From Euglena gracilis (taxonomy: Eukaryota): a stretch of DNA of 64,000 nucleotides. Below the pieces are notes generated by a model that saw only the letters and a list, made by a program, of their open reading frames with translations, was not told where the DNA came from and did no database searches. The stretch spans positions 7,265,425 to 7,329,424 of the forward strand of contig CP154954.1 in the NCBI GenBank assembly GCA_039621445.1, given 5' to 3'. Shown here piece by piece: positions 12,094 through 61,328 of this stretch; the first letter of the stretch is position 1; every line of letters starts with the position of its first letter. The translations under genes and the position numbers were made by a program.

Positions 12094-15073
12094 TCGGTAA
12101 TGTTGTTGCGGTTGAGCATTTTGCCACACTCACTACTTCTTTCCAAGAAGCCCAACAACGTATTTTGCATCTTGGCTCGGAAATCGAGCATTTGAAGCAG
12201 TTTCAGGCGAAAGTGCAAGAAAATTTTGTTCCCCGTTCGCAAATCCAGATTTTGGAGGAACGCATCCTATACTTGGAGCAGAAATCCTGCCATTGTGCCG
12301 CAAATCAGGATGGATTAACCACCTTGAACGCTAAAATCGCGGATTGCGCACAACGGTTGGATTTCGCGCAACAACAAATGCAAACGGACATTGGCGGTAT
12401 GAATGCCACCGTTGTCGGTTTGCAGGAGCATGTTTCCGCACTTTCCAAGCGAATTCCCGACATTAGTGGTATCCAAGCCGCTATTGGGGAATTACAAATC
12501 CGTTGCACCTTGTTGTCCACCACAGTAGTGGAAATCCGCCACTGCCCCCCATTTCGCGTGCTCGGATATCCGAGTCACCGGAATTTCGCTCATTTTACAA
12601 CAAACTGCTTGGTGACAACAAGGAAACCTTGCAAGCATTTTGCACGAGTTTGATTCAACTTGAGGAATCGGTGAATCGGAATGCCCGGTCCATGCAAGAT
12701 GAGGTTTCACGGTTGGATGGACGAATTTCCGCGTTGTTGGAAAAGCCAACCGCGGAAAATTCGCGCACCATCGCGGAAACCCCCACAAAGTCACCCCACC
12801 AATTGCAAATTGTCTCAAATGCAATAAAAGCGCTTGCGGGTCAACTCCGGAATGTGGAGGAGTCCCAAAGACAACTTGTCCAAGACCTACACTTGGTTTC
12901 TGAAAAGTTACCACTCTTGGACGACTTTTCCCGTTACCGCAAACGCATTAGGCATTTGGAGACTGAGGTTGACCGTATTTGCGGCCAACTCCAGTTGGTG
13001 GAACATTTGTAAGAAACGGTGCATGACTTGTCCGCGATTTTGGATAAAATGTCCACTCCGGTACCAGTTATGTCACCACCCACCGCGGTAAGCGCTGCGG
13101 TTGGTATTCCAAATGTCCCGGAATCGCGTTCTCAAATTACCATTGCTGGAGTAGGAATCCCTACATCCACCGCGAATTTGGTACAACCACCCGCGAAAAC
13201 GGGAATTGTACCACCTTTGCATTTGCCCACACCACAAACTCACTTTTCGCAACACATTTCCGATGAGGAAATTGACCCCCCGCTCGAAAATCCGAGTCTC
13301 CACCAAGAAATTCAACATCTCAACCTGGTACGAGGAATGAGCCAACACCCCACACCCGGTATTGGTCATGTGTCGCATTCGCGATCATAACAACCACCAA
13401 CGGGTTCTGGATTACCAGACCACCCGTCGGGTTTTCGGCGGGAAACCGGCCCCACAGGGAGAATTTCACCAAAATTTTCGCAAATCCCGCAGGAAAATCC
13501 TGCCAACCTTGCACTTGGTGCGGAAAATCCTGCACGGGATACACATGGAGCGGAAAATCCGCGAAACGCGTTTGGTGTTAGGCATTACCCTGACCCAAAC
13601 CCCTGGAATACCACCGAGGGTCAGCGGGTTACTCAGAGAGACTTCAAGGGCACCATCGCAATTGCGAACAAGGTGAAACCCCAATGGGACGGGGATCCAA
13701 CCACATGGAGACAATTTTTTCGGGACTGGGAGTACTATTGGGCACTAAAGGGACCCACCCAAGACCCGAATCCCGAGGTAGTCAAGATGGAATTCATCGA
13801 TTGCCTACCCAGGGAGGAGCGAGAACGCGCACGCAATTTAGTGATACGTAATGACGTATCATTTGATGACCTGGTTGAGCAATACGCTTCAACCAACTCA
13901 AGTCTGGTCACCAGGATTACCCTGGAGAAGAAATGGCGACAATTCGCGCCATCGGATCGCAAATGGAAATCCATTGACCTTTGGTATGCCAAATGGTTAG
14001 CACTTGCTTCCGAAGTTGATGAACTTAGCGAGAAGCAAATGCGCGAACAATTCGATGCGGTTTTGTTGCATTTCACACCATCCCTCGTGAAGGATATCCA
14101 TCGCGAGGAGTTGGCAGGGCATGAGATGACTCTTGCCCAACTTTGGAATTATGTGTCAAAGCAACTCAAGCTCACACAAGTTTTGGGACAAATACAGTCC
14201 GCTTTCCAAACGCATCCCACCGCGGGAATCCCTGCGGGTGCGGTTAACGCGTTGCAAAAATCACCCATGTCACCAAGATCACCCACCACGGGACCGAAAA
14301 CGCGGAATCAGCGTTCTTCGGACCAAGGCACGGATAAACTGTGCTTTTTGTGCAACAAATCTGGTCACATGTCTCGGGAATGCCCGAATCCCGATGCGCG
14401 AAAGCGTATTGGAAGCCCAAGGGGCTCGACCTCCTCACGGGGATCGGGTTCCTCAGCGTTTTCACGTCAATCGGGAGTTTCACGTTCTTCGGAGAACCGC
14501 TTTAGCGGTAGTAGGCCCAAGTCACCATCGCGTGATGGTCAGGAAACCCGTCACTCTCGCGGTCGGTCACCTGGACCCCCTACCCGAAAACGGGATTTCA
14601 ATCGCGACCCTTCACGATCTCGTTCGCGAAGTGGATCATCCTCTTCGCGCGAGTCACCGGGGAAACCCCGGTACACCGGTCATGGTCGACGGGAAACCCG
14701 TTCGCCACGACGGTTTGACGGAAGAACGGAATACCGTTCCCCCCGTTATGCGGAATCCCGCCACAAATCCCGTTGTTCACTTTGCGGTTCCAAAGACCAC
14801 CACTCATCCAAATGTCCCAGATCTCGTTCCCCCCGGCCCGGCTACGGAAATCGCGGTAAGCGCCGCGATGACCGTGGTTACTCCTCCAACCGGCAAAATG
14901 TCGGTTTTAAGATATCTTGTTTGGAGGAGGACACCCCGGCTTCGGGCAGGGAGGGGGATGAGACCTCGGACGGGGAATTTAATGAGGCCCGAATGGCGGT
15001 GCGCTCATTAAATTCCATCTATTCCACCAAAAAGTCCGTTGCCGGCTATGCGGCCGGTTCGGACTTGGAGTAG
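12094..15073 (+). pseudogene. gag: Family A gag, 5'-truncated, with frameshifts/stop; coiled-coil region, capsid-like region, two CCHC knuckles, RS-rich tract
   Basis: ORFs 11706-12653, 12503-13012, 13019-13390, 13673-15073; CFLCNKSGHMSREC and CSLCGSKDHHSSKC. Confidence 0.88.
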
Positions 15074-15109
15074 GGGAGCCCGAGGTCCGAGGGCACGGAC
15101 CTCTGGGCT
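15071..15109 (+). promoter_or_regulatory. Putative gag-pol UAG readthrough signal (stop followed by hairpin)
   Basis: TAG GGG AGCCC-GAGGTCCG-agggca-CGGACCTC-t-GGGCT; pol continues in the gag frame; identical in A and B. Confidence 0.7.
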
Positions 15110-16799
15110 GATGAACAGATGGAGGTAAGACCTGATCAACCTTACCCCCCCTGCCCATCCGCCTTCACGGTCAGTACCCGGAATTATTTCGGCACCCACT
15201 CCACATTTCCGCTCGGAATGCTGAGCAAAGTAGGAAAGGGTTCATGGGAGAGCTGGCATGCAAACGTATTTCAGCCAGACCCTTCACTTTGCGTACCACC
15301 AATGGAATTACTCGTCCAAGCGGAAATTTCTCCACTAAAGTTAAAATTCTCATTGACACTGGTTGTCGCATTGCACTGCTCTTTCGGTTGGGGTTGATAC
15401 CGACCCCGCTCTTGGTAAGCGCCAAGAAACCGATCAAAATTACAACCGCGGATAACACCCCCATGTGTGGTGGTGATTTGGGATGTGTGCTCGAGATACT
15501 CTTGCCCATCATTCCGAAGCATCACTCACAACCCCCACAATTACAACATTTCACCAATATTTGGGGTTACGAGTCCGGAATTCACGGGTCTGACGTAATT
15601 TTGGGATACCCATTTTTACGCCAGTACCGATTGGTTGTGGATTGCCACTCCCACGGTTTGCGCACAGCACCCACCACTTCATTGACACCCAAACCACCAT
15701 CACCGTTGACATCCACCATGGTGACCACCACTTTTCCAACACCGTTACCCACAATGGCAACACCGTTATCCACCACACCAACAACCGTTTTCCACACCCG
15801 GGGTACGGAGAAGGCCTCCCCCCTGCCCAATGACACGCCAACATGCGTTCCACATGAGGCAGGGCAAGCAAGTAGCGGTACCCCCGCCGTTTCACTGGGT
15901 TACAAGACGAAAGCCCAAAGGCCTGAAGATATATCGGTGTCGAGTAGTCGCCCAGCCACACCACCACTCCGTTACCCACCAGTTGTGCCGAATCCAGGCA
16001 CACCTGTACAAGACTCACCGGCTAATGCCATCGACACCCACGTACACGCACACCCGTCACACCACTACACTTCCTTCCAATGTGTGCACTGCAGGAGAAT
16101 TTCCACCCAATCGGATTTCGATTGTGGATGTTTAGCTGAAAATCCGACACTAATCGCAATTCCGAATACGGAATCCACACCCCAGGATACACTTGGTTGT
16201 AACCCGCAATGCGCGGAGATACACCGAGTACTCCAACAACGCGGAATAACCTCGTTGTTCGGAAACGCGAAAAGCGTCATGCCTAATCACCATCCCAAGT
16301 ACACTTGGTATGAATTTGATGCGGGATGGGGAAATCCCCAACCTGTCCAAACTCCCTTGGGATTACCCCTTGAGGTAGTGGAAGACAACCCGCATGTTTG
16401 TGGATCCATTCATTGTGTTTCTTCTCTCCAACCCAGAAATCGGGTGCATGAATACGTGAAACGCGTATGGAATGCTTTCAATTTTGGTCAATATCGCATT
16501 TTGGAACGATGGTTTTCCAAAATCGCGACATTGGCTGATTCTTTTGATTTGGCATTGGAAATCGATGCCTTTTCATCCAATGCACGCCCGTTGCCACGTC
16601 ATTGGTCACAACACTCCAACGCATTTGATAAATTTTGGGGTGACACGGTGTTATGGATGCACCCTCCCCCAAAACTTATCGAATGTGCGGTTGAGAAAAT
16701 TCTGCGGGATGAAGCCCGTGGAGTTATTCTCATACCCATCATTCCGGAAGCGCAATGGTGCACCCAACTATCGTATGTGTGTTTTCATTGGTGGGATTT
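15074..16799 (+). pseudogene. pol: Family A pol 5' part: aspartic protease plus adenine-methyltransferase-like domain, interrupted by element B (resumes 31511-31595)
   Basis: ILIDTG...ILGYPFL protease motifs; EIDAFS..AFDKFW..LWMHPPPKLI..VEKI..ARGVILIP..W. Confidence 0.85.
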
Positions 16800-17114
16800 T
16801 GTGTACCAGGCGTATGCTTCTGTCCCCTTCCGTTGAGGAAGTTAGGATGGAAGCAGATCCTATTAGGATCTCCTAATGGGTGCCCCTTCTCTCTCCACAG
16901 GTGGTATTCTTCTTTATACCTTTTCCTTCCTTTCCATCGGACCGGACTTGGATTTCCAGTCCGTCCTCCCCGCATTGCTTCGTGCTTTGCTTCTTGGGAA
17001 GTGGGAAAAGGGTTTTTACTGTTACTCTGATTTTCAGTTCCCAAGTAGGTGCGCCAAGGCGAAAGCGAAGGCTTTTGGGATTGGGACAGGGGAATTGGGA
17101 ATCAGACGCACACT
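16800..17114 (+). repeat. Family B 5' LTR (TGTGTACC...GCACACT)
   Basis: Direct repeat with 31184-31510; followed immediately by the PBS. Confidence 0.92.
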
Positions 17115-17282
17115 TGGTAGCAGATTAGGTCACGATCCTACACATGCAGCCCATACAGAAAGAAAACGCTATCAAGTATTACACTTGGTAGCAGATTAGG
17201 TCACGATCCTACACATACAGCCCATACAGAAAGAAAACGCTATCAAGTATTACACTTGGTAGCAGATTTGTTCGATCCTACG
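17115..17282 (+). promoter_or_regulatory. Triplicated primer-binding site (TGGTAGCAGA, tRNA-iMet-like), 71-bp period
   Basis: PBS copies at 17115, 17186 and 17257. Confidence 0.85.
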
Positions 17283-17470
17283 CTGACTGGCAGCGGAGGG
17301 CCCCTGCACCGTTATTACACGGTCGCAGCGTCAGCTCCCGGCTTCTAGTCAACGTCTAAGCAGACGAGCAGGCTCCGGAAGGTTCTGTACGGTATTACCC
17401 GTTACAGCCCCTCTGGTGCCAGCACAACTGCTTAGTTTTGTGGGTTTTTGCTGTTTTTGTCATCAGAAAG

Positions 17471-20400
17471 ATGCAAAGCACAGGCCCCAACCATCAATTC
17501 AATTATGCCTTATTACAGGCATCATTGCAAGACATTGATCAAGAAAATGGGGATTGGAAGCTTTTATGTGAAAGTGCTTCCAGTTCCCACGCCGATGAGG
17601 CACAATTGATTCAATTGTCAAGATTGCAACATTTGTCATCATTGACAGTGGTCGGCGATGAGCCCTCCACATTATTGGCTTCAGAGGCTAATGCGGCCTC
17701 TTCCGCACTCACCTTGCCACAACGGGGGTATTCGCCTCTGTCTGCGGCAATGGTGCAGCTGCACACACCGGAGAGACCCGTGGTGATTCCGCCACCGGGC
17801 TTCTCTGGTGATGGTGGGCTAGAAACCCCGTGTTTCTTTCAACCCCCACCGGCTCTTCCACCGGCAAGCCCTTACAGAGCTTTGCCACCACCCCCCGATA
17901 TCGGGTGCTATCCCGCACTACCTTGGCAACCGGAGACTCGCCTCGTGGTGCCGGAATTCTCCGGTACATCCCAACCCATGGATGACTATGGGAAGGGCAC
18001 TGGTGAGCTCCTCACTGCTGAGGATGTGCAGGATATTGTTGCTCGGCTTCCAGGGGATCACCCCCTTGTGAGGCAGTTCAACCATGTGCAACAATGCGTT
18101 GCAGAGTGTGCAACCGCATTGAACAAAGTGCTTCAGTTTGATGAGGACAACCAGAAACATGTCTTCACCAAGCTGGAACACTGCTGGAATTACTTGCAGG
18201 AAGTTGGCAGATATTGCCAGAGGAATTTCGAAAGTGCGGGTATTGACCTTGCAAACTTTCGGGAAACCTTTGACAGAATATGCCAACAGCTCCCGCAAAA
18301 CTTCCGGCAAATTAGTGAATGCATGCATGAAGCGGAAACGCGGAATGACTCCAAGTTTCTGCACTTGCATGGCTCACTACAACAGTTATCGGGACAAATG
18401 GAGTCCTGTTCATCTGCGTTGTTGCATTTGCAACAACAGTTGCATGCACGAGATTCCTCGTCTGCAACATCCAGCAGTGGTGGATTTGTGTCTATGGACC
18501 ATTTCACCACATTGTCCGCAACTTTCCATGAATCGCAACACCGCATTATGCAGTTGTGCGATGAAACGGAAAAGTTTCGGCAATTCCAGTCACAAGCCAA
18601 CGAGAATTTTGCTCCCCACACGTATGTGCGGCAGTTGGAGGAGCGACTTTCCCGTTTGGAGCAGAAAACCTGCTATTGTGACGCGAATCAGGTTGGATTA
18701 TCCAATCTGAGCGCGAAAGTCGCGGAAATGGCACAACGGCAGGATTCCCTGCAGTTGCAGTTGCAATCCGACATTGGCGGGATTAACTCGGCCATTGCGG
18801 GTTTGCAACAAAGCTATTCCGCACTTTCCCACCGAGTTCCGGACATTAGCGGTATTCAGACTGCTATTGGGGAACTCCAGACCCGGTATGCATCGGTGTC
18901 TACCAAAGTAACGGAAATGCAGTCTCTACCTGCAGGTTCCAGTTCTCGGATTACCGAGAACCCTGATTTCAAGGCATTTTATGACAAAATGCTCACTAAC
19001 AATCAGGAAACCTTGCAAGATTTCTGCAACAGCCTATTACGGCTTGAGGAATCGGTGAATCGGAATGCCCGATCCACGCAAAGTGAGATTACCAGGTTGG
19101 ATGAGCGAATTTCCGCGTTGTTGGATAACCCACAACCTGGAAATTTGCCCATGGGTACCACAACCGCGTTCTCGGATAACCCTGCACCGGTTGCACCCAC
19201 CACCACACCAACCAAGGTGACATCACCTTTGCAGATTCTCTCAAATGCTGTAAAAGCATTAATGGGACAACTCCAATTATTGGATAAGTCTCACGGGAAA
19301 CTTGTCCAAGACGTTAACCAGAATTTCCGAAAGGATTCCGCACTTGGATGACTTTTCCCGTTACCGCAAGCGTATTCGCGCTTTGGAGGATGAAGTTGAC
19401 CGTATTTGCGGCCAACTCCAACTCGTTGAGCATTTGGAGCAAAGTGTGCATGACTTGTCTGTGGGTTTGGATAATGTGTCCAACCAACAGCGGGTTTCAC
19501 ACCGCAATTCGGCAGTATGCATTGCCGAAGATGCGCCAGATGCTCCAGATTCGCGTTTCCACAACCCGAATCTGGGTGCACATGCACCACCACCACCCGT
19601 GTCCCGAGTGTCACAATCCGCGATTCCGCGAATTGTGCCACCATTGGCCTTGCCTACAACTCAAAACCAGTTTTCGGATGAATTTCCCATTACGGGAACC
19701 GAATTTTCGGAAAACACGGCGATTCCGCCAAGTCTCCACCAAGAAATCCATCATTCCATGCTTGTGCGTGGAATGAGCCAAACCCGTACACCGGGAGTGG
19801 GTCTCACGTTGCATGCGAGACATACCCCCACACCGGAGTGTCCCCCTATTACGGGTGACCAACAGGGTTTGCGACCGGATTTCCGGTACCAGGATTCACC
19901 TTCACCAGAAATTTCGCGATTCCGACAAGAATCCGGAAAGGATACGCTTGGTGCTCGAGCGTACCCGGGCCCGAATCCACGGAATACCACCGAGGGCCAA
20001 CGGGTTTTTCAGAAAGACTTCAAGGGCACCATCGCAATCGCGAATAAGGTGAAGCCCCAATGGGACGGTGACCCAACCACATGGAGACAGTTTTTCCGGG
20101 ACTGGGAGTACTACTGGGCATTGAAAGGGCCAACCCAGGACACAAACCCGGAGGTGATCAAGATGGAATTCATTGATTGCCTCCCTAGGGATGAGAAGGA
20201 GCGCGCGCGACAACTCGTCATTCGCTACCGCGTTTCCTTTGATGACCTGGTGGAGCAATACGCTTCCACCAGTTCAAGTTTGGTCGCTAGGATTACCCTG
20301 GAGACCAAGTGGCGGCAATGCGCCCCACCCGATCGCAAATGGAAGTCCATTGACCTTTGGTATGCCAAATGGTTAGGACTTGCCGCTGAAGTGGATGAAC

Positions 20401-20797
20401 TCAGTGAAAAGCAAATGCGCGAACAGTTTGACGCTGTTCTAATGCATTTCACGACTAGCCTCATTAAGGATATCCATCGTGAGGAGTTGGCGGGTAATGC
20501 AATGACTCTTGACCAACGCTGGAACTACGTTTCCAAGCAATTGAAGCTATCACAGCTTCTTGGTCAGATTCAATCCGCGTATACCGCACACCCAACCGCT
20601 GGATTACCGGCTGGTTCGGTAAACGCATTGCAAAAATCACCGGTTTCACCTACTTCACCCACCACGGGATCGAAAACGCGATACCCGCGTTCTTCGGACC
20701 AAGCCACGGATAAAGTGTGCTTTTTGTGCAACAAATCGGGACATATGTCTCGGGAATGTCCTAATCCTGAAGCGCGTAAGCGTATTCAGAGTCCGCG
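17471..20797 (+). pseudogene. gag: Family B gag, 3'-truncated after the first CCHC knuckle, frameshift near 19320
   Basis: ORFs 17438-19351 and 19302-20888; homologous to 41457-45431. Confidence 0.88.
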
Positions 20798-21240
20798 TAT
20801 TCAGACTGCAGAATTGTGTACCAGGCAGCATGAACATGGCACTGTGCATAGCAGCAGACTGCAGAATGTACAATGTCATGCCAGATAGTACTATTCCAAG
20901 TTCTGCAATACAAGTTGCAGAATTAGGAATAGCCTATCCTGTCTCGGATCTGCCTTCTCTTTTCACAGGTGGTATTGTTATTCTGTTTCACATTTCATTA
21001 GCCCAAAAGGGCAAACCAAGATTTCAAGTTCAACACTCCGATAGGAGAACATTGGAGGAACGAGTTTTCCAAACAAATACCTCTCTTTGCCTTGTGCTCT
21101 GCATAAGCCAAAAGGCAATAAAAACTAATAGTTAAGTGAAAGATTTTCTTTTTTGTTACTCTCCTGGTTCTGTTCCCACGGGAGGGTGTAAGTAGGCCGA
21201 CAGGCAGTGGGAATAGAGTCAGGGGACGTACACTTGGTAG

Positions 21241-24067
21241 GTGTTTGATTTAGGCGATAACCCCGCTGCGCCATGGGTGCAACGCCTATCGGCGTGTGGC
21301 TCTATTGAGCAACCCATCGCCCAGTGTGACTATCAAAGTCAGGCATCTTGTTGTACTTCTATGCAACCAGATGTCGCAACGGTGCCTACAGGCACAATTG
21401 ACAAATGTCCTCCAAAGGAAGACACACCCGCACAAAACTCTCAGGCACCGAGCAAAACTTTGTGTGAGATGCAATCCAGCAATGATGCGGCATTTTTGCA
21501 CATGCAACATAGTTTGCAAAATTTGTTTGCAAAAGTGGAGCCAATAACGGCACTTTTTGAGCACAAAAATTCTAATATGGGAGCTTTTGTTACCTTGAAG
21601 CAGTTCAATGCATTCCAGGAAGCGCAACAGCGCATTATGCAACTGATCCGTGAATCGGCAAGTTTTCACCATATGCATACCCAACCTGGTGAAGCTTTCG
21701 CTTCCAGCACTTATGTGCAGCAATTGGAGGAAAGACTTTCCCGGTTGGAGCGAAAGTCATGTAGGTGTGGTGAAAATTCTGCTGAAATAACAAGTTTTTA
21801 CTCCCATATTGCGAAGATCGCAAGCAGACAGGATGCGTACCACCAACGGTGGCAGAACAATATTGTTGACATCCAGACCGCAATTGCGGAGTTGCAGAAC
21901 CGCACTGCGGTACCATGTTCACATAATTTAGAATTTCAGCGACTTTCTGCAGATATGTGTGATGAAAATCACCAAGTGATAAAAGAAAATTGTGACGGTC
22001 CGATACGGACCGAGGAAACAGTGAATCAGCAAGTCAAAAACTTGCAGAAAGATTTCGCAGCGCTATCCGCGCAAGTTTCGGTGTTTTTGGAACAGCCAAT
22101 GGCTGAAAACGTGCGGAATCCGCAAAATACCCCTCCTTCCAAACCACCTCCACAACTGGAGCCTATTTCCGAAGCGGTGCACACTCTAGCTGTGCGATTA
22201 CGGGAATTGGAAAGTGGTTTTGGAAAAATTGCGCAAGATTTCCGGTCTTTTTCTGACAAAATCCCTCTTCTGGACGATATGTCCAAACACGGCAGGCGTA
22301 TTAAGCGTTTGCAGGAAGATATTGGTGCAATCACCGATCATCTGAAAATTCTCGATGATTTGGAGAAAAATTTTGGTGACTTTACAGAAAATTTGGATCA
22401 AGTACACGCACAATTGCGTTTATTACAACAAAAACCCGATACGGGTGTTGTAGGCACACTTGCCGCAGATTCCAGCTCCAAAAGCGCCAATAGCGCACCT
22501 GTGGCGGAGCCTATTGGCACATTGCCACAAAATTACGATTCTGCTCATGCAGTGGTCCCTCCCCCAGCGGTACCAGTCCCAATGGACCATTTTTTGGATG
22601 ATGGGGTTGGTTTTCAAGAGAAAGCCAAGTGAAACCCTCAAAGAAATCGAAAAATTTAGGAATATGAACTTTGCCGCACTCCCGCACATGGTATTGATCC
22701 TCAGATGCATCAGCATCACCATTCGCGCATTCGCGATTCACCAAGTTTTCGCATTCGCGAGTACACCAAGTGGAATATTGAATACGCATTCGCAAAATAC
22801 ACCCAAAAGTACACTTGGTGCAACCACCGAGGTACCCGCGCATGGTGCGGTTTTGCGCCCAGGCCCATCCTCCTTGAATACCACCGAAGGGCCATGGGAG
22901 TCTCAGAAAGATATCAAAGGAATCATCGCTATCGCGAAAAAGGTAAAGCCCCAATGGGACGGTGACCCAACAACATGGAAACAGTTTTTCCGTGATTGGG
23001 AATATTATTGGGATCTGAAAGGATCAACTTACAACGGAAACCCAGAGGTGATCAAAATGGAATTCGTAGATTGTCTCCCAAAAGATGAAAAGGAACGCGG
23101 CAGACAATTGGTCATTCGCGGGCGCATTTCTTTTCAGGATTTGGTTGAGCAATATGCTTCTTCATGTTCCAGTTTGGTTACCAGAATAACTCTGGAGAAA
23201 AAATGGCGGCAATATGCCCCCCATGACCGAAAATGGAGGTCGATAGACCTGTGGTACTCAAAATGGCTTTCTTTGGCAGCCGAAGTAGACGAGTTAGGTG
23301 AAACCCAAATGAAAGAGCAATTTGACGCAGTATTGCTGCACTTTATACCCAAACTCATCAAAGATATTCACCGCGAGGAACTCGCAGGACATATTTTGAC
23401 GCTCGATGAGCGATGGAACTATGTTTCCAAACAGTTGAAGCTATCACAGCTTCTGGGACAAATCAAGTCGGCTTATACGAGCCACCCCATAGCAGGAATA
23501 CCCGCTATCCAAGTCAGTTCTGTGAAAAAAGTGACACACTTACCAATTACCGCTATGGCGGAATCCAAATCGCGCAATTCGCGCTCTTCAGAAGGAGTTT
23601 CGGACAAATTGTGCTTTTTGTGTAACAAAAAGGTTCATATATCTTGCCATTGTCCAAATCCCGCAGCGCGAAAGCGCAACCCAAGTCCAAGAGGATCAGC
23701 CTCATCATGCAGTTCTCGTTTTTCACAAAATGCGCATTCGCAAAAATCAAAATACCAATCACGATCAACATGTTCACTGTGCGGATCAATCAACCACCCC
23801 TCACCCAAATGTCGCTATGCGACTCCTCCCCACCCAAGCCATCGCGATATGACTCGCAGTTCAAAAGATCATACTTCAGCCAAAAGGCATAAGGTAGGTC
23901 AAAGAGCAACCTCTATCGAGGATTATCGCCCGGCTTCGGGCAGGGAGGGGGATGATACCCCATGTAACCAAAGGGATCATCCCTGCATTAGCACTCGTAA
24001 ATTCAGAGACGTATATGCGTCAAGAAAGTCAATGGCTGATATGGCCACCGGTTCAGTTTTTGAGTGA
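21241..24067 (+). pseudogene. gag: Family C gag (5'-deleted, frameshift near 22630)
   Basis: ORFs 21241-22632 and 22460-24067; KVKPQWDGDPTTW and CCHC motifs shared with A and B. Confidence 0.85.
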
Positions 24068-27000
24068 AGGTACCAAAAATCCAAGGACACGGACTACAGA
24101 GGCTACTAGAAAGGAGGTGACAGGAGTCGCGACCCTAGTCATCCCCTGCCCAGTATCCTGTCTGGTCAGTGTGCAAGGATTTTCTGGTGTCCCCGCTCAA
24201 AATTTACATGAACCTTTGACATATAGACCGTTTTGTGTTTCCGGTTGTGGTTCATCATGGGATAGCCCATGAATGTCCATGTGGTTGAGTGGATTCCCGC
24301 TCCAAGAATGCACACAACACCGCAAAATTCCCCCCCCTCAAACTTCCACTAATCATCATTTTTACATACCGTTTTCGATGACAGCAACACCGTTTTCCAC
24401 AACACCAACACCGTTATCAACCCGGGGTAAAGAGAAAGTGCCCCCCCCCCTACCCACTGCATATCCACAAACGTTCCACATGCGGTAGGGGTAACAAGTA
24501 GCTTAACCCCCATTCGTTCCACTGGGTTCCAAGACGAAAGCCCTAAGGCCTGAAGTTTAAACGGTGTCGAGTAGTCGCCCAGCTGCTTTCAACTTTCCGT
24601 TTTCCACCAGGTTTGTCGATTCAGACAATCCTGTACACCCCCAGCAGCTCCAAAATTCGCTTGCTTCAATTTTTTTCCCCACACTCACCCCCGCAGACCG
24701 ACATGCGCGACCAGGACAACTACTCCGCACCTTCCCCCCATGGTGTGCACTCTGGGAGAACTTTCCACACAATCACCAACCAAACACAAAGGTGAATATA
24801 TACATCAAAACTAATCCCCCCACACTCTATCTCCAACGGAGAGCTCTATTCATTGACAAATTTTTGTCAAGTGCAAGACAAATTCAGCACTATGTGCACA
24901 CTCCCCCCGAAGCGCATAGCGCACATCAATGCCGATGCGCATAGCTCACATTCCTCCGCAAGCGCTAATTGCGCACACCACGCGTCGCGCGAATCCTGCG
25001 CATATCGCGCTTCCAAGCCTACCCCCCACGCACATGTTGCGCAGTGTAGCAACTGTCCCCCCCCCACGCGTATCGCGCCATATCATGCGCGTATCGCGCT
25101 AGACCCCGCGCGTATCGCGCCACCCACCTTAGCAACCCCCCTTTCTCATAATGTCGTGTGAGCACTATCGTGCATTTATGACATATGGGTATACGCCCAA
25201 ACCACCCATATTCTTTTGGGAATCATTCCCAAAGATATATGTGTGGAAATCCGCAACTCTGTTCGTGGATGTTTGTTTCTGTACCACATGATCAAATTGC
25301 AGATTTTGTTTGATGACAGCAAACAAGAAGTGAAGTTTTATGTGAATACGGTTCTTTGCCCAATCCATTCCCACACCCAAAATATTTTGGTGTTCCCAAA
25401 GCTCTATAGAGCAACACAAGACATGTGATAAAGTTTTTGGGATGTATTGCAAATACTGCATTTTTCCCGAAAACTTATCCAACTTGTGCTTAAATAGCAG
25501 TTTTGTGCCTAAATGGCTTATACTTTGGCAAAATGCAATCCCGATATGGGAAAATGCTCACAATTTCATTTCTTTTATGTGCAACATAGTTTCCCACCCC
25601 AAAAGAAAATGAAGAAAATTCATTCAAACATGAATGGATTTTGTGGACTTGACCACTTGCCTTAGGTCTATGTGACCAATACACCCTATGATGTGCAAGG
25701 TCTATGGGCCATTACCCATGTGGTCCATGGGTCCATAGGACCAATTTGCACAAAATGCAAGGACCAAAAGGACCAAAGGCCCACAAATACATATTTTAGA
25801 GTGAAAAGTCCATAGGACCTCAAAAAATGGCACAAAAAGCCATATTACATGGCTGAAAGTGGCTAAATTGGCCAAAACAAGCCAAATAGGCTAGTTTTAT
25901 GCAGATTTGCATAAGTGTCACTTTGGCATAGCCTCAAAACCACCACAAAAGCTTCAAAATTTCTGGCACCTCGTGCCATGAGGTTTTGACAGTATGTAGT
26001 AGTGCCTATGAGATAGAAACCAAAAGTTGTCTTTGTAGAATAAATTATGGGAGCTTATAGCAAAAGCTCACTCACACAGGCAAAAGATCAAAGACGTATC
26101 TCAGCGCCTGTAGCTGGCCGATAGGCCATGTTACCCCTCATTCGAAAGCTCGTTAGATGAGCCGTCCGGCGGTGCAATCAGATCGCTGTAACTCCACACG
26201 GTACTCTTATTTGAGGAGATCGTGAAAAATTGAATTAAGCCAAGCCAATCCGGCCAAAAGCCAAATTTTGAGCCAGATCTTGTACGATCGTGTACCAGAC
26301 TGGCAAATCAGCCTGTAAGGCTTCTATACTGTTCCCTACATCGTTTCTGATGGCTAATTACCATTGGTTACCAGATTGGCTAATGGCCATTTTTTTAGTA
26401 CCTTTGGCAGCATTCTGCCCATTGCCCCATCTGTATGGGCTATCATGCCTGGTACAGTTCAGAGGGCTATAGCCCACAATTTGGAGTCATTTCGACTCAC
26501 TAGAATCATTTTTAGGAGCACTTATGTGCAAATTTTCATTTAAATCATTGATTTTCTGCAATTTTTGGTGACTTTTCCCTATTCTGGCACTCATATCCCT
26601 AATGGGAGTGACCATGAGGCACTATGCCAGAGTGGAATGCAAAGGGATATGCTGATAATCGCAATTTTTCCTTTGCTCAAGATGTCATAGACATGTTTTA
26701 CTTGTATTTTCAAGCGTATTTTTGCTTTTTGCGATATTTTTGCACAATTTTACAGCTTTTTGGGTGATGCGGTGTTATTAGACACCCAAATCCCAAAATC
26801 TGTAAAACAACAGCAAACATGCAGTGTTGTTGGACACTCTCAACAAGCACTATGTGCACTTGGCAAATATGCAGTCTTAAAAGACTCAAAATGCAACAAA
26901 GTTGCACTTTTGGTTGCAAAAATGCCATACTCGACGCAGAATCTGCATTTCTGCCCTAAATCCTGATAGGGATTTCCCTAAAAATCTGATATAAGTCAGT

Positions 27001-27088
27001 ATATCTCAGTGACATAGTCACTAATGATGAGATTTTGTCATATTTGCAGTGTTTTTTTTTCCAGCTTACCACACTAACGGCATTCTTG

Positions 27089-27185
27089 CCCCCCCCCCAC
27101 TTTATTAGTGGGACCCCCTTACCGATATAATTCGGACCCCCCCCCCACTTTATTCAGTGGGACCCCCTTACCGATATAATTCGGA
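27089..27185. repeat. Two-copy ~49-bp tandem repeat in the C internal region (also ~54126-54229)
   Basis: poly-C-actttatt(c)agtgggacccccttaccgatataattcgga x2. Confidence 0.8.
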
Positions 27186-28414
27186 GGACCCAATGGTCAT
27201 CATGTGCAACACCAATGGTGTCATTCTGCAAGGTTTATAAGAACCATAGCTCAAAAATGGTGAAATCCAGCTTTTTGTGATGAATTTCACCGCACGGGAA
27301 CAATGTTCCATCCTTTTATGTGCATTCACAGTTCATTTGCGGTTTTTCAAAGTGGTATAAGCCACACCAACCACAGTTGTTTTCTGTGAATTGGCAGCAG
27401 CCTGCCACATTTCCGCATTTTTTCCGCGGTTGTACACATCAGTATGACCTTTTTGGCAATCTGCCGAAATTTTTGATTCGGGTATACACCCATTAGTATT
27501 TTTGTGCCATGCATATACCGCAAGGCAATGTTTCTGGGCGATAAAGCCTACCCCCTTCCCCATTATTTTTGGCTAATGCCAACCATTCAGCCTACAGGCT
27601 GCACACCCAAGGCACAAATGCCAAATCTACAGTTTTTAGGGCTACTGCCCGCTATTCTGAGGTATAAGCCACTGGGGATACCCCATCGACAACATTGTGC
27701 TCGCGCTGCACTGTGAAGACTTCACGGCGGTATATGCCGCAGTAAGAAGACGCACAGCGTACAGCGCGCACACCGTAATAATAGGGCCAACTTGTTACTT
27801 TTCGGCCTTAAGGCCCCCATAAGACTGCCAGACAGCAAAAATTCTTTGTAAGGTCTTTAGACCAGCCCCCCACCTCTCTCCCCTTTCCCCCCCGGGCAAA
27901 ATCGCTGTCGCCGGCAGTTGGTTTTGTAAATAGGCTTTCCTCCCTGGTCAGGTATGACTGGCCAGGTGCCCCTCCTTCCACACCCTACCCTTCAATCTTT
28001 TCTGATTATGGAATGAGACCTCCCCGCGTGTCATAGACACACCCCAAACCGGGTGGATGGGACTTTCTGGAATGGAAACCTTCCAGCCCCATTTTCCAAT
28101 GGGCTCTTCCACTTCCACCCCTTTACCGCAATAAGTAGTTAGCCGCATAACCTGATAACCTCTTTTGCGCGTTTTGGGTTGTTGGGTTCCCCTCTCTTCC
28201 TTCCCTTTCTGGTTTATCAACCTTGTGATGGAGAAGCAGACCCAAGATATGCTTTCCTGGTGTACCTTCCTCATTCTTAGAGCTACGCTTGAATCCTTGC
28301 TGGCCTGGTCCAGTAAGGAAATCGGGCAAAGCCCTGGGAGGGGGATGTGTACCAGGCAGCATGAACATGGCACTGTGCATAGCAGCAGACTGCAGAATTG
28401 TGTAGGTAGATATT

Positions 28415-31510: not shown

Positions 31511-31594
31511 GATTTACCCACTAATGTACCGATTTTTGAAGACTTTTGTGGTAAAATATTACCACCCTTGCAAGAAATCATTTTTCGTGTATGT

Positions 31595-32227: not shown

Positions 32228-33367
32228 AGTGTACGTCTGATTCCCAATTCCCCTGTCCCAATTCCCAAAAGCCTTCGGTTTCGCCTTGGCGCACCTACTT
32301 GGGAACTGAAAATCAGAGTAACAGTAAAAACCCTTTTCCCACTTCCCAAGAAGCAAAGCACGGAGCAATGCGGGGAGGACGGACTGGAAATCCAAGTCCG
32401 GTCCGATGGAAAGGAAGGAAAAGGTATAAAGAAGAATACCACCTGTGGAGAGAGAAGGGGCACCCATTAGGAGATCCTAATAGGATCTGCTTCCATCCTA
32501 ACTTCCTCAACGGAAGGGGACAGAAGCATACGCCTGGTACACATCCCCCTCCCAGGGCTATGCCAGATTTCCCCTTTGGACCAGGCATTATGGCCACAGG
32601 GATTTCGGACACAGACCTGGTCTGTGGGAGGTGCACCCTGGCGCATCCACAGGGGCCCTTTCCGTCGCACAGGGGTCCACTCAAAGGTGGGGGGGCGGAA
32701 AGGAGGGGACTCAAAAAGTCTAAAACGCTCAAAATGGTTTCACCTATTCTGCGGTGGCTTATGGGTATATAGTATATTATAGCCCACTGGGGAAAATGGG
32801 GCTGGCAGGTTTCCTTGCCAAGCAAACCCATCCACCCAGTTTGGGTGTGCCCAAGGCACTTGGGGTTGGGTCCATGGGCATTCCAGGAAAACCCATGGGG
32901 AGGGTGTGGAAGGAGGGGGCCTCTGACCAGTCAAACCTGGGCAGGGCGCATGGCCAGTCAAACCTGACCACGCAAAAGGAAATCCTACTCTACAAAACCA
33001 ACTGCCGGCGACAGCATTTGCCCCGGGGGGAAAGTAGAGAGGAGTGGGGGGTTGGCTTAGGCCAGAAAAGTTGTGCTGCCTGGCAGCCTTAAGGCCTCAA
33101 ACGGCCGAAAAGAAAAGAAAGGGAAAGGAAAAGAGGCCGTCGGCCCTGTGCGCTGCGTGTCGCACGCCCGCGAGAGGGGAGAGGGGAGAGGGGTGTGCAT
33201 GCATGCGCACGGAATCCTGCACATGGCAGCATCCCGGTGGGAACTTACTAGCGGCGAATACCGCAAAGGGTCTTCGAAGGGGCTGTTCGGGCGAATACCC
33301 AAACAGGGTGTCAGGCGAATACCTGACGAGGGTGCTGAAAGACGCCGCATTGGCGCTGACAGACACC

Positions 33368-38895: not shown

Positions 38896-38967
38896 GATGC
38901 TACCCGAACGACGACGACAACGAAGGGTAACCTTGTTGTCAGTCGCTTTGAGTGCTGGTGCACTGAA

Positions 38968-45431: not shown

Positions 45432-45635
45432 CTTTCTGATGACAAAAACAGCAAAAACCCACAAAACTAAGCAGTTGTGCTGGCACCAGAGGGGCTGTAA
45501 CGGGTAATACCGTACAGAACCTTCCAGAGCCTGCTCGTCTGCTTAGACGTTGACTAGAAGCCGGGAGCTGACGCTGCGACCGTGTAATAACGGTGCAGGG
45601 GCCCTCCGCTGCCAGTCAGCGTAGGATCGAACAAA

Positions 45636-45787
45636 TCTGCTACCAAGTGTAATACTTGATAGCGTTTTCTTTCTGTATGGGCTGTATGTGTAGGATCGTG
45701 ACCTAATCTGCTACCAAGTGTAATACTTGATAGCGTTTTCTTTCTGTATGGGCTGTATGTGTAGGATCGTGACCTAATCTGCTACCA
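45636..45787 (-). promoter_or_regulatory. Triplicated PBS, 71-bp period (family B, right arm)
   Basis: tctgctacca at 45636, 45707 and 45778. Confidence 0.85.
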
Positions 45788-46103
45788 AGTGTGCGTCTGA
45801 TTCCCAATTCCCCTGTCCCAATTCCCAAAAGCCTTCGCTTTCGCCTTGGCGCACCTACTTGGGAACTGAAAATCAGAGTAACAGTAAAAACCCTTTTCCC
45901 ACTTCCCAAGAAGCAAAGCACGGAGCAATGCGGGGAGGACGGACTGGAAATCCAAGTCCGGTCCGATGGAAAGGAAGGAAAAGGTATAAAGAAGAATACC
46001 ACCTGTGGAGAGAGAAGGGGCACCCATTAGGAGATCCTAATAGGATCTGCTTCCATCCTAACTTCCTCAACGGAAGGGGACAGAAGCATACGCCTGGTAC
46101 ACA

Positions 46104-51901: not shown

Positions 51902-52155
51902 CTTTTGAGATGGGTAAAAAGGCAAAAACCCAAAAATTCACACAAATAAGCAGAGAAACAGGGACCAGAAAGGTTGTATCGGCGATTACCGAACAGAGCC
52001 TTCTGAGACCTGTATCCTTGCTTAAATGTTGGCTAGGGGCCAGGAACAGTACTTTCACCGTGTTTCACGGTTCAGTACGATCCTCACCACCAGTCAACCA
52101 CAGAGTTTCTCTGTGTGGAACGCCTGTGTAGGATCGTTGCCTAAATCTGCTACCA

Positions 52156-52555
52156 AGTGTACGTCCAAGGACTTCCCTTTGACCCCTTTTGCCACGGAAA
52201 AGCCTGTTTCGCTTTCTCCTGGTGCGCACCTACTTAGGTGACTAAAAATCCTTGGAGTAACAAAGCACTTTTTCCTAATTCCCCTATGCTAAGGCAGAGC
52301 ACAAAGCAAGTCGCTGTGTAAGGATTTTCCTTCACAGTCGTGTTCAGTCCTTTTCAGAGGTTGATCCTCTTACTTCAAAACAATCAGAATGTGAAGAATA
52401 GAATACCACCTGTGAGGAAAAGAGATCACGCGAGCACTTGTGATACGTGTCGCTAATTCCCATAGGATCTGCCACGATCGTCAGGCTGTGTTCATCACAG
52501 CAGTCAGATTGTGACGGATCCAGACTCTGCAGGTTTCCTACAGAGCTGGGATCGT
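52156..52555 (-). repeat. Family A 5' LTR (major part; its first 12 bp lie at 61317-61328)
   Basis: Ends GGACGTACACT followed by the PBS; shares the CACAGGTGGTATT motif with the B and C LTRs. Confidence 0.82.
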
Positions 52556-55500
52556 AGTGTACGTCCCCTGACTCTATTCCCACTGCCTGTCGGCCAACTT
52601 ACACCCTCCCGTGGGAACAGAACCAGGAGAGTAACAAAAAAGAAAATCTTTCACTTAAATATTAGTTTTTATTGCCTTTGGGCTTATGCAGAGCACAAGG
52701 CAAAGAGAGGGATTTGTTTGGAAACTCGTTCCTCCAATGTTCTCCTATCGGAGTGTTGAACTTGAAATCTTGGTTTGCCCTTTTGGGCTAATGAAATGTG
52801 AAACAGAATAACAATACCACCTGTGAAAAGAGAAGGCAGATCCGAGATAGGATAGTCTATTCCTAATTCTGCAACTTGTATTGCAGAACTTGGAATAGTA
52901 CTATCTGGCATAACATTGTACATTCTGCAGTCTGCTGCTTTGCACAGTGCCATGTTCATGCTGCCTGGTACACATCCCCCTCCCAGGGCTTTGCCCGATT
53001 TCCTTACTGGACCAGGCCAGCAAGGATTCAAGCATAGCTCTGAGACTGAGGAATGTACACCAGGACCGCATGTCTTGGGTCTGCTTCTCCATCACAAGGT
53101 CAAAAACCAGAAAGGGAAGGAAGAGAGGGGAACCCAAAAATCCCAAAACGCGCAAAAGAGGTTATCCGCTTATGCGGCTAACTACTTATTGCGGTAAAGG
53201 GGTGGAAGTGGAAGAGCCCATTGGAAAATGGGGCTGGAAGGTTTCCGTTCCAGAAAGTCCCATCCGCCCGGTTTGGGGTGTGCCTACGGCACTTGTGGTG
53301 GTCTCATTCCATGATCGGAAAAGATTGTAGAGGTAGGGTGTGGTAGGAGGGGCACCTGGCCAGTCATACCTGACCAGGGAAGAAGACCTATTTACAAAAC
53401 CAACTGCCGGCGACAGCGATTTTACCCGGGGGGGGAAACGGGAGAGGAGTGGGGGGCTGGTCAAAAGACCTTAGGCAGAATTTTTGCTGTCTGGCAGTCT
53501 TATGGGGGCCTTAAGGCCGAAAAGTAACAAGTTGGCCTAATTATTACGTTGTGCGCGCTGTGTGCTGTGCGTCTTCTTACTGGCGGCATATACCGCTGTG
53601 AAGTCTTCACAGTGCAGCGCGAACACGGTGTTGTCGATGGGGTATCCCCAGAGGCGTATACCTCAGAATAGCGGGCAGTAGCCCTAAAAACTGTAGATTT
53701 GGCATTTGTGCCTTGGGTGTGCAGCCTGTAGGCTGAAGGGTTGGCATTAACCAAAAATAATGGGGGGGGTAGGCTTTATCGCCAAGAAACCTTGCCTTGC
53801 GGAATATGCATGGCACAAAAATTCTACTGGGTGTATACCCGAATCAAAAAAATTCGGCAGATTGCCAAAAAATCATAGTGAGGTGTACAACCGCAGAAAA
53901 AATGCGGAATTGTTGCAGGCTGCTGCCATTTCACAACTGTGGTTGGTGTGGCTTATACCACTTTGAAAAACCGCAAATGAACTGTGAATGCACATAAAAG
54001 GATGGAACATTGTTCCAGTGCGGTGAAATTCATCACAAAAAGCTGGATTTCACCATTTTTGAGCTATGGTTCTTATAAACCTTGCGGAATGACACCATTG
54101 GTGTTGCACATGATGACCATTGGGTCCTCCGAATTATATCGGTAAGGTGGTCCCACTGAATAAAGTGGGGGGGGGGGTCCGAATTATATCGGTAAGGGGG
54201 TCCCACGGAATAAAGTGAGGGGGGGGGGCAAGAATGCCGTTAGTGTGGTAAGCAGGAAAAAATACTGCAAATATGATAAAATCTCATCATTTGTGACTAT
54301 GCCACTGAGAAATACTGACTTTTGTCAGATTTTTAGGGAAATCCCTGTCAGGATTTAGGGCAGAAAAGCAGATTCTGCGTCGAGAATTGCATTTTTGTAA
54401 CCGAAAGTGCAACTTTGTTGCATTTTGAGTCATTTAAGACTGCAAATTTGCCAAGTGCACATAGTGCTTGTTGAGAGTGTCCAATAACACTGCATGTTTG
54501 TTTTTTTACAGATTTTGGGATTTGGGTGTCTAATAACACCACATCACCCCAAAAGCTGTAAAATTGTACAAAAATATTGCAAAAAAAGCAAAAATACGCT
54601 TAAAAATACAAGTAAAACATGTCTATGACATCTTGAGCAAAGGAAAAATTGCGATTATCAGCATATCCCTTTGCATTCCACTCTGGCATAGTGCCTCATG
54701 GTCACTCCCATTAGGGATATGAGTGCCAGAATAGGGAAAAATCACCAAAAATTGCAAAAAATCAATGATTTAAATGAAAATTTGCACATAAGTGCTCCTA
54801 AAAATGATACTAGTGAGTCGAAATGACTCCAAATTGTGGGCTATAGCCCTCTGAACTGTACCAGGCCTAATAGCCCATACAGAGGGGGCAATGGGCAGAA
54901 TGCTGCCAAAGGAGCTTAAAAATGGCCATTAGCCAAACTGGTAACCAATGGTAATTAGCCATCAGAAACGATGTAGGGTACAGTATAGAAGCCTTTCAGG
55001 CTGATTTGCCAGTCTGGTACACGATCGTACAAGATCTGGCTGAAATAATTCGGTTTGGCCAAATTGGCTGGGCTTAATTCAAAATTTCACGATCTCCTCA
55101 AATAAGAGCACCGTGTGGAGTTACAGCGATCTGATTGCACCGCCGGACGGCTCATCTAACGAGCTTTCGAATGAGGGGTAACATGGCCTATCGGCCAGCT
55201 ACAGGCGCTGAGATACGTCTTTGATCTTTTGCCTGTGTGAGTGAGCTTTTGCTATAAGCTCCCATAATTTATTCTACAAAGACAACTTTTGGTTCCTATC
55301 TCATAGGCACTACTACATACAGTCAAAACCTCATGGCACGAGGTGCCAGAAATTTTGAAGCTTTTGTGGTGGTTTTGAGGCTATGCCAAAGTGACACTTA
55401 TGCAAATCTGCATAAAACTAGCCTATTTGGCTTGTTTTGGCCAGTTCAGCCACTTTCAGCCACGTAATATGGCTTTTTGTGCCATTTTTTGAGGTCCTAT

Positions 55501-60514: not shown

Positions 60515-60750
60515 ATTTATATTTGCAGGGGAAAAAAAACACAAGCAAACCACAAAAGGTAAGCAAAGGAACAAACTTAGAAGGATGTGGCAGCTTATAC
60601 TGTCCAGAGCCTCCTGAAGCTCGTACCTGTGCTTAGAAGTTGGCTCCAAACAGCTCGTGGACGCTTTGTGGCCTATAGGCTCAGCACCACCCACTGTTTG
60701 AAGTCACCTGATAAGATGGGGGGGAGAAGGGGCGTAGGAAAGAAACCAAA

Positions 60751-60892
60751 TCTGCTACCAAGTGTACGCCTTGGTAGTCTTTCTGTTTGTGAAGTATGTG
60801 TAGGTTCGTAACCTATTCTGCTACCAAGTGTATTCCTTGGTAGTCTTTCTGTTTGTGAAGTATGTGTAGGTTCGTAACCTATTCTGCTACCA
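60751..60892 (-). promoter_or_regulatory. Triplicated PBS, 66-bp period (family C)
   Basis: tctgctacca at 60751, 60817 and 60883. Confidence 0.85.
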
Positions 60893-61328
60893 AGTGTACG
60901 TCCCCTGACTCTATTCCCACTGCCTGTCGGCCTACTTACACCCTCCCGTGGGAACAGAACCAGGAGAGTAACAAAAAAGAAAATCTTTCACTTAACTATT
61001 AGTTTTTATTGCCTTTGGGCTTATGCAGAGCACAAGGCAAAGAGAGGGATTTGTTTGGAAACTCGTTCCTCCAATGTTCTCCTATCGGAGTGTTGAACTT
61101 GAAATCTTGGTTTGCCCTTTTGGGCTAATGAAATGTGAAACAGAATAACAATACCACCTGTGAAAAGAGAAGGCAGATCCGAGATAGGATAGTCTATTCC
61201 TAATTCTGCAACTTGTATTGCAGAACTTGGAATAGTACTATCTGGCATAACATTGTACATTCTGCAGTCTGCTGCTATGCACAGTGCCATGTTCATGCTG
61301 CCTGGTACACAATCGTGCCTGGTACACA

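Follow-up and report, generated by a model that had tools for sequence, protein, structure and literature searches.

Reverse transcription of a retrotransposon bounded by long terminal repeats (LTRs) starts from a primer-binding site (PBS) that is normally single-copy and position-critical, because it sets the right end of the complementary DNA (cDNA). What, then, is to be made of an element that carries the site three times? The question is raised by a 64,000-nucleotide (nt) stretch of the Euglena gracilis genome (GenBank assembly GCA_039621445.1, contig CP154954.1, positions 7,265,425 to 7,329,424 of the forward strand), hereafter the window, in whose own coordinates all positions are given. 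Two retrotransposon families in the window, B and C, hold three PBS copies in tandem behind the 5' LTR, with an inverted complement (anti-PBS) ahead of each internal copy; a third family, A, holds one. We read the array as a heritable duplication of the primer module that varies in copy number, in which the first site is the functional one and hairpins mask the internal sites, an account to which we give somewhat better than even credence. The tandem PBS would then probably be an unusual, tolerated or spare-part variant of an ordinary retrotransposon leader.

Tandem primer-binding sites in two families

The 10-mer TGGTAGCAGA has ten matches in the window against 0.12 expected, a number that 0 of 100 shuffles reached. 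They start at the following positions.

17115, 17186 and 17257, plus strand: family B
45636, 45707 and 45778, minus strand: family B, second arm
60751, 60817 and 60883, minus strand: family C
52146, minus strand: family A, the only match in this family

The matches are evenly spaced, three at a period of 71 base pairs (bp) in each arm of B and three at 66 bp in C, as an earlier note on this DNA had described. Tandem Repeats Finder recovers the same repeats, with a period of 71 and 2.2 copies in B (17110-17268, 98%; 45634-45792, 100%) and a period of 66 and 2.4 copies in C (60744-60900, 93%). Every TGGTAGCAGA abuts, without a gap, an LTR end or the TACACT copy of that end. The second B array had been counted as a further occurrence; it belongs to an inverted duplicate (12094-20797 against 50810-42109, 98.5% over 8.7 kb), and since both B arrays lie within one inverted segmental duplication, they are one observation seen twice. 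The window thus offers four independent leaders, those of A, B, C and C', the last being an element that shares its LTR with C. The parts of these leaders are as follows.

16800..17114, plus strand: 5' LTR of B, starting TGTGTACC and ending GACGCACACT
17115..17126, plus strand: PBS1 of B, TGGTAGCAGATT, adjoining the LTR end; the most open site
17126..17140, plus strand: T-arm-like hairpin of unit 1 of B, TAGG-TCACGAT-CCTA, repeated at 17197-17211
17141..17167, plus strand: A/C-rich linker of B, whose blocks CCTACACA... and ACAGAAAGA are common to C and A, repeated at 17212-17238
17168..17192, plus strand: anti-PBS hairpin 1 of B, made of GCTATCAAGT, the loop ATTAC and ACTTGGTAGC, predicted to cover the copy of the U5 end together with nt 1-7 of PBS2
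17186..17197, plus strand: PBS2 of B, with the LTR-end copy TTACACT directly before it
17239..17263, plus strand: anti-PBS hairpin 2 of B, predicted to mask PBS3
17257..17282, plus strand: terminal unit of B, PBS3 and a decayed T-arm-like stretch TTTGTTCGATCCTACG, leading into unique leader
45634..45794, minus strand: second copy of the B array, carried by the opposite arm of the inverted segmental duplication, and not independent
60744..60900, minus strand: C array, with its PBS copies at 60892-60881, 60826-60815 and 60760-60749
60843-60836 and 60777-60770, minus strand: anti-PBS of C, CTACCAAG
60881-60867 and 60815-60801, minus strand: hairpins of C, TAGGTTACGAACCTA (TAGGTT-ACG-AACCTA)
52155-52144, minus strand (region 52129..52161): single PBS of family A, with an in-register T-arm-like hairpin at 52143-52129 and without an anti-PBS
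20815..21260, plus strand: C' LTR, 98.6% identical to that of C, with one degenerate site, TGGTAGGTGT..., behind it and then a leader of unrelated sequence

A unit thus reads from the PBS through a small hairpin and the A/C-rich linker to an inverted copy of the U5-end/PBS junction, and from there across a loop of 5-7 nt into the next TACACT and PBS. The small hairpin takes the form TAGG-7 nt-CCTA in A and B and is extended to 6 bp in C, and the anti-PBS segments GCTATCAAGT of B and CTACCAAG of C lie where the earlier note had placed them, as do the hairpins and the TACACT copies. In a search of the window, the anti-PBS was found only ahead of internal sites, with none in the LTRs and none in A. 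The leader of C' at 21235 holds only TGGTAG and no array. The 5' LTR of B is repeated at 31184-31510 (94%) and, inverted, at 32228-32543 and 45788-46103; in the public sequencing run X1, nearly all of the depth shows T at 17109, so that the B LTR ends in GTACACT.

A further leader hairpin, with coordinates set by eye, is present in B (ACCGT-TATTAC-ACGGT, about 17306-17325, plus strand) and in A (CCGTG-AAA-CACGG, about 52063-52077, minus strand). The loop of the B hairpin repeats the ATTAC loop of the B anti-PBS hairpins.

The LTR-adjacent site and the predicted folds

Use of an internal site ought to leave a mark. By our own derivation from the standard model of reverse transcription, priming at PBS2 or PBS3 ends the cDNA at the base before that site, and the 3' LTR of the new copy is extended by one or two units, that is, by 66/71 or 132/142 bp. 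The 3' LTRs of the two independent array-bearing insertions read as follows.

32228..32543, minus strand: 3' LTR of B, ending GACGTACACT, then at once the target-site duplication GATTT; no 71-bp extension
52556..52974, minus strand: 3' LTR of C, ending GACGTACACT, then at once the target-site duplication ACGAT; no 66-bp extension

Both ends are clean (2/2), with GTACACT running straight into the target duplication. The two LTRs of B are 99.4% identical over 316 nt and those of C 99.3% over 419 nt, so RNAs bearing the array transposed recently, and the absence of an extension from both 3' LTRs indicates that the last transposition of B and of C was primed at PBS1, the site beside the LTR. The core of the earlier note, a real PBS array with a built-in complement in two families, is upheld.

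RNA folding places anti-PBS/PBS hairpins in the minimum-energy and the centroid structures of both arrays, and the arrays fold better than their shuffled counterparts (z = -3.2 and -4.6; 0 of 200 shuffles as good). We expressed accessibility as the predicted cost, in kcal/mol, of freeing 12 nt at a site. PBS1 is predicted to open for 3.0-4.7 kcal/mol over B and C (3.5-4.7 in B) and PBS2 for 8.3-10.6 (10.4-10.6 in B), while PBS3 requires 12.2-13.6 in B and 4.0-6.2 in C; for the lone site of A the figure is 2.5-3.1. Because the complements number one fewer than the sites (n-1 against n), there is always one site left free.

The primer and the likeness to tRNA

An HIV study describes an 18-nt PBS designed for the human initiator tRNA-Met (PMC1797187), and TGGTAGCAGA equals the first 10 nt of that PBS (10/10) before the 11th base differs, the reference being human and not the host. 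From this match we infer initiator tRNA-Met as the primer. The antisense strand of family A continues the likeness: it comprises a 4-bp T stem, a 7-nt loop starting ATCG, a 7-nt acceptor strand, an A, and CCA. These 28 nt would correspond in register to tRNA positions 49-76 in the numbering that we assume. By the same assumed numbering the B and C units lack one base for that register, and CGATCC in B lies one base off for a complement of positions 52-57. The base at what we take to be the place of the universally conserved A58 is a T. The proposal that the antisense strand reads as a tRNA 3' half ending in CCA accordingly applies in register to A, and in B and C is short by that one base.

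The T-arm-like part may be either extended complementarity to the primer, in the manner of Ty1 and Ty3, or a decayed copy of the primer produced by plus-strand read-through. That the array is itself a tRNA gene or a tRNA-derived element was considered and ruled out, as neither ARAGORN nor Rfam detects a cloverleaf: ARAGORN reports 0 tRNA genes in the window, Rfam at gathering score gives 0 matches over the whole window, and a looser Rfam scan (E up to 10) of the surroundings of B and A returns chance-level matches to unrelated families only, with no tRNA.

Descent of the units

The earlier note described the units of B and C as alike in structure and different in spacer sequence, a case of architecture conserved while sequence changes. 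The units in fact align over their full length, anti-PBS included, with 55 of 71 positions identical (77%), and blocks such as CCTACACATAC and ACAGAAAGA are common to B and C and partly to A too. The U5 region beside the array is 55% identical between B and C, and the leader behind the array 59%. Because the units are homologous throughout, the architecture common to the two families comes from common descent and not from convergence of unlike sequences.

Within each family, units 1 and 2 are 98-100% identical, being either recent duplicates or homogenised. In each family the third unit departs from the first two, with a decayed tRNA-like part (TTTG--TTCGATCC in B, TTTGGTTTCTTTCC in C) that runs into ...CCTACGC. 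Counted from TACACT, the first 20 nt of this terminal unit are identical in B and C, which, set against 59% for the leader and 55% for U5, indicates that an array of at least two units, one of the non-terminal (u) type and one terminal, predates the split of B from C.

The stems offer no sign of compensatory change. Among the 16 stem pairs compared, 12 are invariant, one has changed on one side (C-G to U-G), three gain or lose pairing, and none has changed on both sides (0/16), which leaves unsupported the claim that structure was kept while sequence differed. As the PBS side is fixed by the tRNA, the covariation test is weak either way.

Site number in public sequencing runs

The stretch is present in 20 public runs, and contigs of four of these (X1, X15, X16 and X18) were compared with 16800-17900. 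Short-read contigs cannot count identical units, so the forms below are presences and not frequencies; likewise, contig depth gives no copy number, and we draw nothing from a dip at 17133-17169 or from uncovered bins in X15, X16 and X18. The family is very abundant in X1, with 5568 contigs. X15 record 13 (582 nt) and X18 record 24 (716 nt) pass unbranched from the LTR through one u-type unit into the terminal unit, giving two sites; in X16 records 16/17 the LTR end passes straight into the second unit, with the sequence continuing through PBS3. Two joints in X1 fit a one-site form, one (17126>17273) leading from the LTR and PBS straight into a terminal-type context and the other (17232>17304) being an A-like leader without a terminal unit; a loose end in the same run shows a perfect GCTACCAAGT. 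In X18, the only run on record as RNA, one contig begins at LTR base 1, but it may represent DNA or read-through and is not taken as a sign of transcription.

PBS copy number therefore ranges from 1 to 3, with one site in A, one degenerate site in C', three in B and C, and two in the forms from the runs. The idea of a fixed number of three does not survive the two-site forms in three other runs and the possible one-site forms in a fourth. The earlier note had itself named variable copy number together with stems free of covariation as the pattern that would speak against it; both are seen, and its strong form is weakened to that extent.

Wider searches aimed at the DNA of relatives gave no confirmed locus. 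The pattern ACACTTGGTAGCAGA N{10,13} CCTAC was found at 0 loci in metagenome, genome and viral contigs; a narrow gag alignment against metagenome contigs gave 89 pattern matches, 0 confirmed, and a reverse transcriptase (RT) alignment gave 90 in genome contigs and 59 in viral contigs, again with 0 confirmed.

A proposed masked duplication of the primer module

Taken as a whole, these observations suggest the following model. The duplicated module would consist of the U5 end, a PBS of 10-12 nt for initiator tRNA-Met, the T-arm-like stretch and the linker. At least two units would have existed before B and C split, with later gain and loss between one and three, most likely by template switching of RT between the repeats; the near-palindrome at each junction suggests an origin in a fold-back or strand-switch error of reverse transcription. 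Minus-strand synthesis would start from PBS1, which adjoins the real U5, and probably from PBS1 only. Each internal PBS would be locked with the inverted junction copy upstream of it in a hairpin of 8-10 bp, if the predicted folds form in vivo, and the favoured fold would leave exactly one site open, PBS1. Since the internal units are masked in this model, the copies would leave replication undisturbed.

Several points weigh against this model. PBS1 use was tested on two insertions only, a small sample. The folds are in silico, with a transcript start that is not known, and the third site of C is only weakly masked by prediction (4-6 kcal/mol). The length of the PBS and the meaning of the T-arm-like part are provisional, the comparison having been made with a human reference and general tRNA numbering. 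The internal sites seem to be under constraint: all six PBS sites of the two arrays, four of them internal, keep the 10-mer, TACACT is kept ahead of 4/4 internal sites, and between B and C the u-type units have diverged less than the U5 and the leader on either side of them. Recombination between families could have moved the array and so explain the similarity of B and C, given that C and C' share an LTR and not a leader. Direct repeats are deletion-prone during reverse transcription, so that finding the array still present in two families, and in runs whose labels name three organisms, hints at selection. Against a purely neutral view, then, the intact internal sites, the better-conserved units and the expected loss of repeats keep a selected role in play, be it a supply of spare priming sites, whose cDNA would still end in an integrase-like terminus, or a structural device of the leader; for all such roles together we consider this possible and clearly the less probable side.

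The mosaic of C and C' is an observation in its own right. Between C' (20815-22713, plus strand) and C (61311-58614, minus strand), the LTR is 98.6% identical and the region from 22713 onward 93.6%, and the leader, the PBS and the start of gag are unrelated. Such a mosaic points to recombination between families, a process by which PBS arrays, too, could pass from one lineage to another.

Competing explanations

The alternatives differ chiefly in what they ask of the internal sites. All two or three sites might be used as a redundant platform, giving more productive initiation or a backup against the loss of one of them. The U5-end copy TACACT (CGTACACT before the third site of C) would keep internally primed cDNA usable by integrase, and TACACT with the 10-mer is intact at 4/4 internal sites of B and C, in contrast to the diverging linkers; the terminal unit is identical over its first 20 nt where the next leader falls to 59%, and the array is retained in two families and recurs in runs of other organisms. 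However, the extension that such use predicts is missing from 2/2 independent 3' LTRs, the internal sites are those predicted to be masked, a single-site family, A, lives in the same genome, and the ACT of TACACT also sits in the B hairpin stem, which offers another possible cause of its conservation. We regard redundant use as unlikely. A stronger version, in which selection maintains a multi-module platform whose every unit is a full tRNA dock with its own U5-end copy and whose n-1 inverted copies act as a register switch exposing one site, is also unlikely in our judgement, if by a hair less so; were it true, any site could start an integrase-competent cDNA, and the element would be robust to mutation, cleavage or small-RNA attack on one site. 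The same hairpins might instead have no part in priming and serve Gag or nucleocapsid binding, packaging or dimerisation, or a register switch, each anti-PBS being able to pair with the site before or after it, might time tRNA annealing. The folding scores against shuffles, the site that is always left free, and the linker blocks ACAGAAAGA and CCTACACA kept across A, B and C agree with a structured leader of this kind, but covariation is nil over 16 pairs, a tandem repeat that bears a palindrome folds well by construction, and family A does without the device; jointly we hold these two forms to be rather improbable. That the array is a neutral minisatellite, in which an RT slip made both the duplication and the palindromic junction and the copies, young or homogenised, have no role, would suit the near identity of units 1 and 2, the copy number of 1 to 3 and the lack of covariation. 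It sits less well with a terminal unit that is distinct in B and C (TTTG...CCTACGC) and retains a perfect PBS and U5-end copy, or with units more conserved than their flanks. This explanation overlaps the masked-duplication model, the sole difference being whether masking matters, and on its own we find it improbable, slightly more so than a structured leader.

Two further proposals fare worse. In self-priming of the Tf1 type, which the earlier note had raised, the anti-PBS would be cut and used as primer instead of a tRNA; an intramolecular complement of the PBS does exist, and the relatives carry a chromodomain, as elements of the Tf1/sushi group do. Yet all 15 matches to GCTACCAAGT with at most one mismatch are PBS copies or inter-unit anti-PBS, with 0 inside LTRs, and because no LTR holds a complement, none can lie at the 5' end of the transcript, which must fall within the LTR. 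The internal complement is on the wrong side for copying U5-R: standing 5-7 nt upstream of its partner site, it would on cutting leave the loop alone as template, and pairing with the upstream site instead would drop one unit per cycle (both by our own derivation). The site, moreover, matches a tRNA 3' end and is followed by the T-arm-like stretch. We consider self-priming very improbable, and extend the same doubt to the proposal that the array is a decoy or sponge for small RNAs derived from tRNA 3' ends or otherwise aimed at the PBS; several identical target sites per RNA would serve such an end, but it is the extra sites for which masking is predicted. A priming switch and the packaging of several tRNAs, also suggested in the earlier note, draw no support from the analyses made. 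The junction was also compared with a 'micro-LTR' (purine run, U3 start and U5 end) and the idea rejected: of nine local alignments, three junctions against three starts of the polypurine tract (PPT) and U3, eight were at chance, and the ninth was matched by 41 of 2000 shuffles, uncorrected.

The elements and their chromosomal setting

By their sequences the nested elements behind the telomere belong to the Ty3/gypsy type of LTR retrotransposons. Their LTRs begin with TGTGTACC and finish in GAC-G-(C/T)-ACACT, the PPT GGGAGGGGGA stands directly before TGTGTACC at four LTR starts, TGGTAG... follows directly after every 5' LTR end, and the target duplications are 5 bp long (GATTT in B, ACGAT in C). 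Pfam finds gag zinc knuckles (CCHC) and RVT_1 (E = 5e-27) in open reading frames (ORFs) of the window, and in the RT-bearing ORF a Dam-like PF05869 match (E = 1.6e-5) whose 25.1 bits lie under the Pfam cut-off of 28.1; tblastn with relatives adds a protease-like region before the Dam-like part. The closest of 97 relatives are proteins from metagenome and run assemblies with RT, RNase H, integrase and a chromodomain; the last three occur in the relatives P0002, P0006 and P0007 only, not in the window copies, and PF05869 is annotated on P0005-P0008 and others. Look-alikes of gag (Atlas) are Ty3 gag clusters, mostly from Basidiomycota, which we treat as a lead only.

No copy in the window is complete, as the pol of B ends inside RT at 38962 and C has no pol match. 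C (61311-52556, minus strand) is inserted 12 nt inside the 5' LTR of A, itself on the minus strand, and B (46103-32228, minus strand) is inserted in the Dam-like region of A, which resumes at 32227-31591. With a broken pol and yet an LTR pair 99.4% identical, B probably moved as a non-autonomous element.

Other features of the window are given here in their own right. At 38962-41219 (minus strand), and also at 15310-16800 (plus strand), the Dam-like domain lies between the protease-like region and RT. The 6.4 kb that follow the RT stop of B (32544-38961, minus strand) hold four ORFs of 266-625 amino acids with no Pfam match at E up to 0.01. C (52556-61311, minus strand) holds coiled-coil gag-like ORFs and repeats, with no match to the protease, RT or integrase of the relatives and LTRs 99.3% identical; it is another non-autonomous mover. 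Its first ORF (60247-60401, minus strand) contains a 33-bp in-frame tandem repeat of 4.7 copies encoding an SSIEHPPTQ-like peptide.

The arms of the inverted duplication (12094-31510 and 32228-50810, centred on about 31511-32227) are 97.6-98.5% identical where aligned and duplicate A with its B insert; in the plus arm the middle of B (about 20800-28600) is replaced by a C-like element. The chromosome end consists of (ACCCTA)n up to 6348 (6.3 kb), followed by 18 copies of a 219-bp satellite (99% alike). Blocks of telomere repeat recur at 10292-10366 and 11789-12090, and the nest of retroelements begins at 12094. The block at 11789-12090 directly caps a 5'-truncated A at 12094, an arrangement suggestive of an ancient break that was healed and afterwards covered by more subtelomeric DNA. 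At the other side, 61627-64000 (plus strand) adjoins the 5' LTR of A and encodes a different Ty3/gypsy-type RT, 35-37% identical to P0002, that runs past the end of the window.

Known systems and implications

Ty1 and Ty3 are primed by initiator tRNA-Met through a short PBS with extra complementarity to the T and D arms of the tRNA. The leaders described here resemble them in having a short PBS that adjoins U5, a match to the 3' end of an initiator tRNA and then a stretch like a T-arm complement; unlike in Ty1 and Ty3, with their one PBS, the whole module comes as a tandem of two or three repeats, and every repeat has its own U5-end copy and inverted junction. More than one PBS for the same tRNA on one genomic RNA, for which the standard model predicts how downstream priming affects the right end of the cDNA, is also what engineered retroviral vectors have offered: Voronin and Pathak, in 2004, reportedly built murine leukaemia virus and HIV-1 vectors with two primer-binding sites. 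Those sites, however, are artificial and widely spaced, with no U5-end copy and no masking hairpin, whereas the present array is natural, spaced at 66-71 bp and inherited in at least two families.

In Tf1, the first 11 nt of the transcript complement the PBS and act as the primer. The RNA here likewise carries its own PBS complement, as in the Tf1/sushi group, but the complement lies between PBS copies, none is found in the LTR, and the site matches a tRNA. Retroviral leaders partly occlude the PBS by U5-leader and PBS-domain stems, so that part of the PBS is paired and tRNA annealing needs refolding, which the folds predict here too; in contrast to those leaders, only the duplicated sites would be occluded here, by a local near-palindrome, and the working site would be open.

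A 2026 preprint describes DAM-LTRs as LTR retrotransposons that encode Dam-like adenine methyltransferases (bioRxiv 10.64898/2026.05.21.726589). The elements studied here are alike in having a Dam-like domain (a match below the cut-off) beside a Ty3/gypsy RT and relatives with a chromodomain, the domain lying here between protease and RT; the terms 'primer binding' and 'PBS' do not occur in the preprint. The 'two PBSs' of an Anopheles copia cluster were considered as a precedent and set aside, being sites for two different tRNAs with no tandem array. We found no natural duplicated or tandem PBS array in the literature searched, which covers few subscription journals, and looking for the 10-mer as such led to nothing of use beyond the HIV study.

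Programs that annotate LTRs and PBSs can be misled by such arrays, and extended 3' LTRs would be the diagnostic footprint of internal priming. For the biology of the family, the lineage is a natural experiment in the choice of where a primer is placed, in the tolerance of direct repeats during reverse transcription and in the silencing of a perfect PBS by leader structure. If the extra sites are used, they would amount to a novel means by which a retroelement secures initiation; otherwise the array would show how duplications of this kind become harmless.

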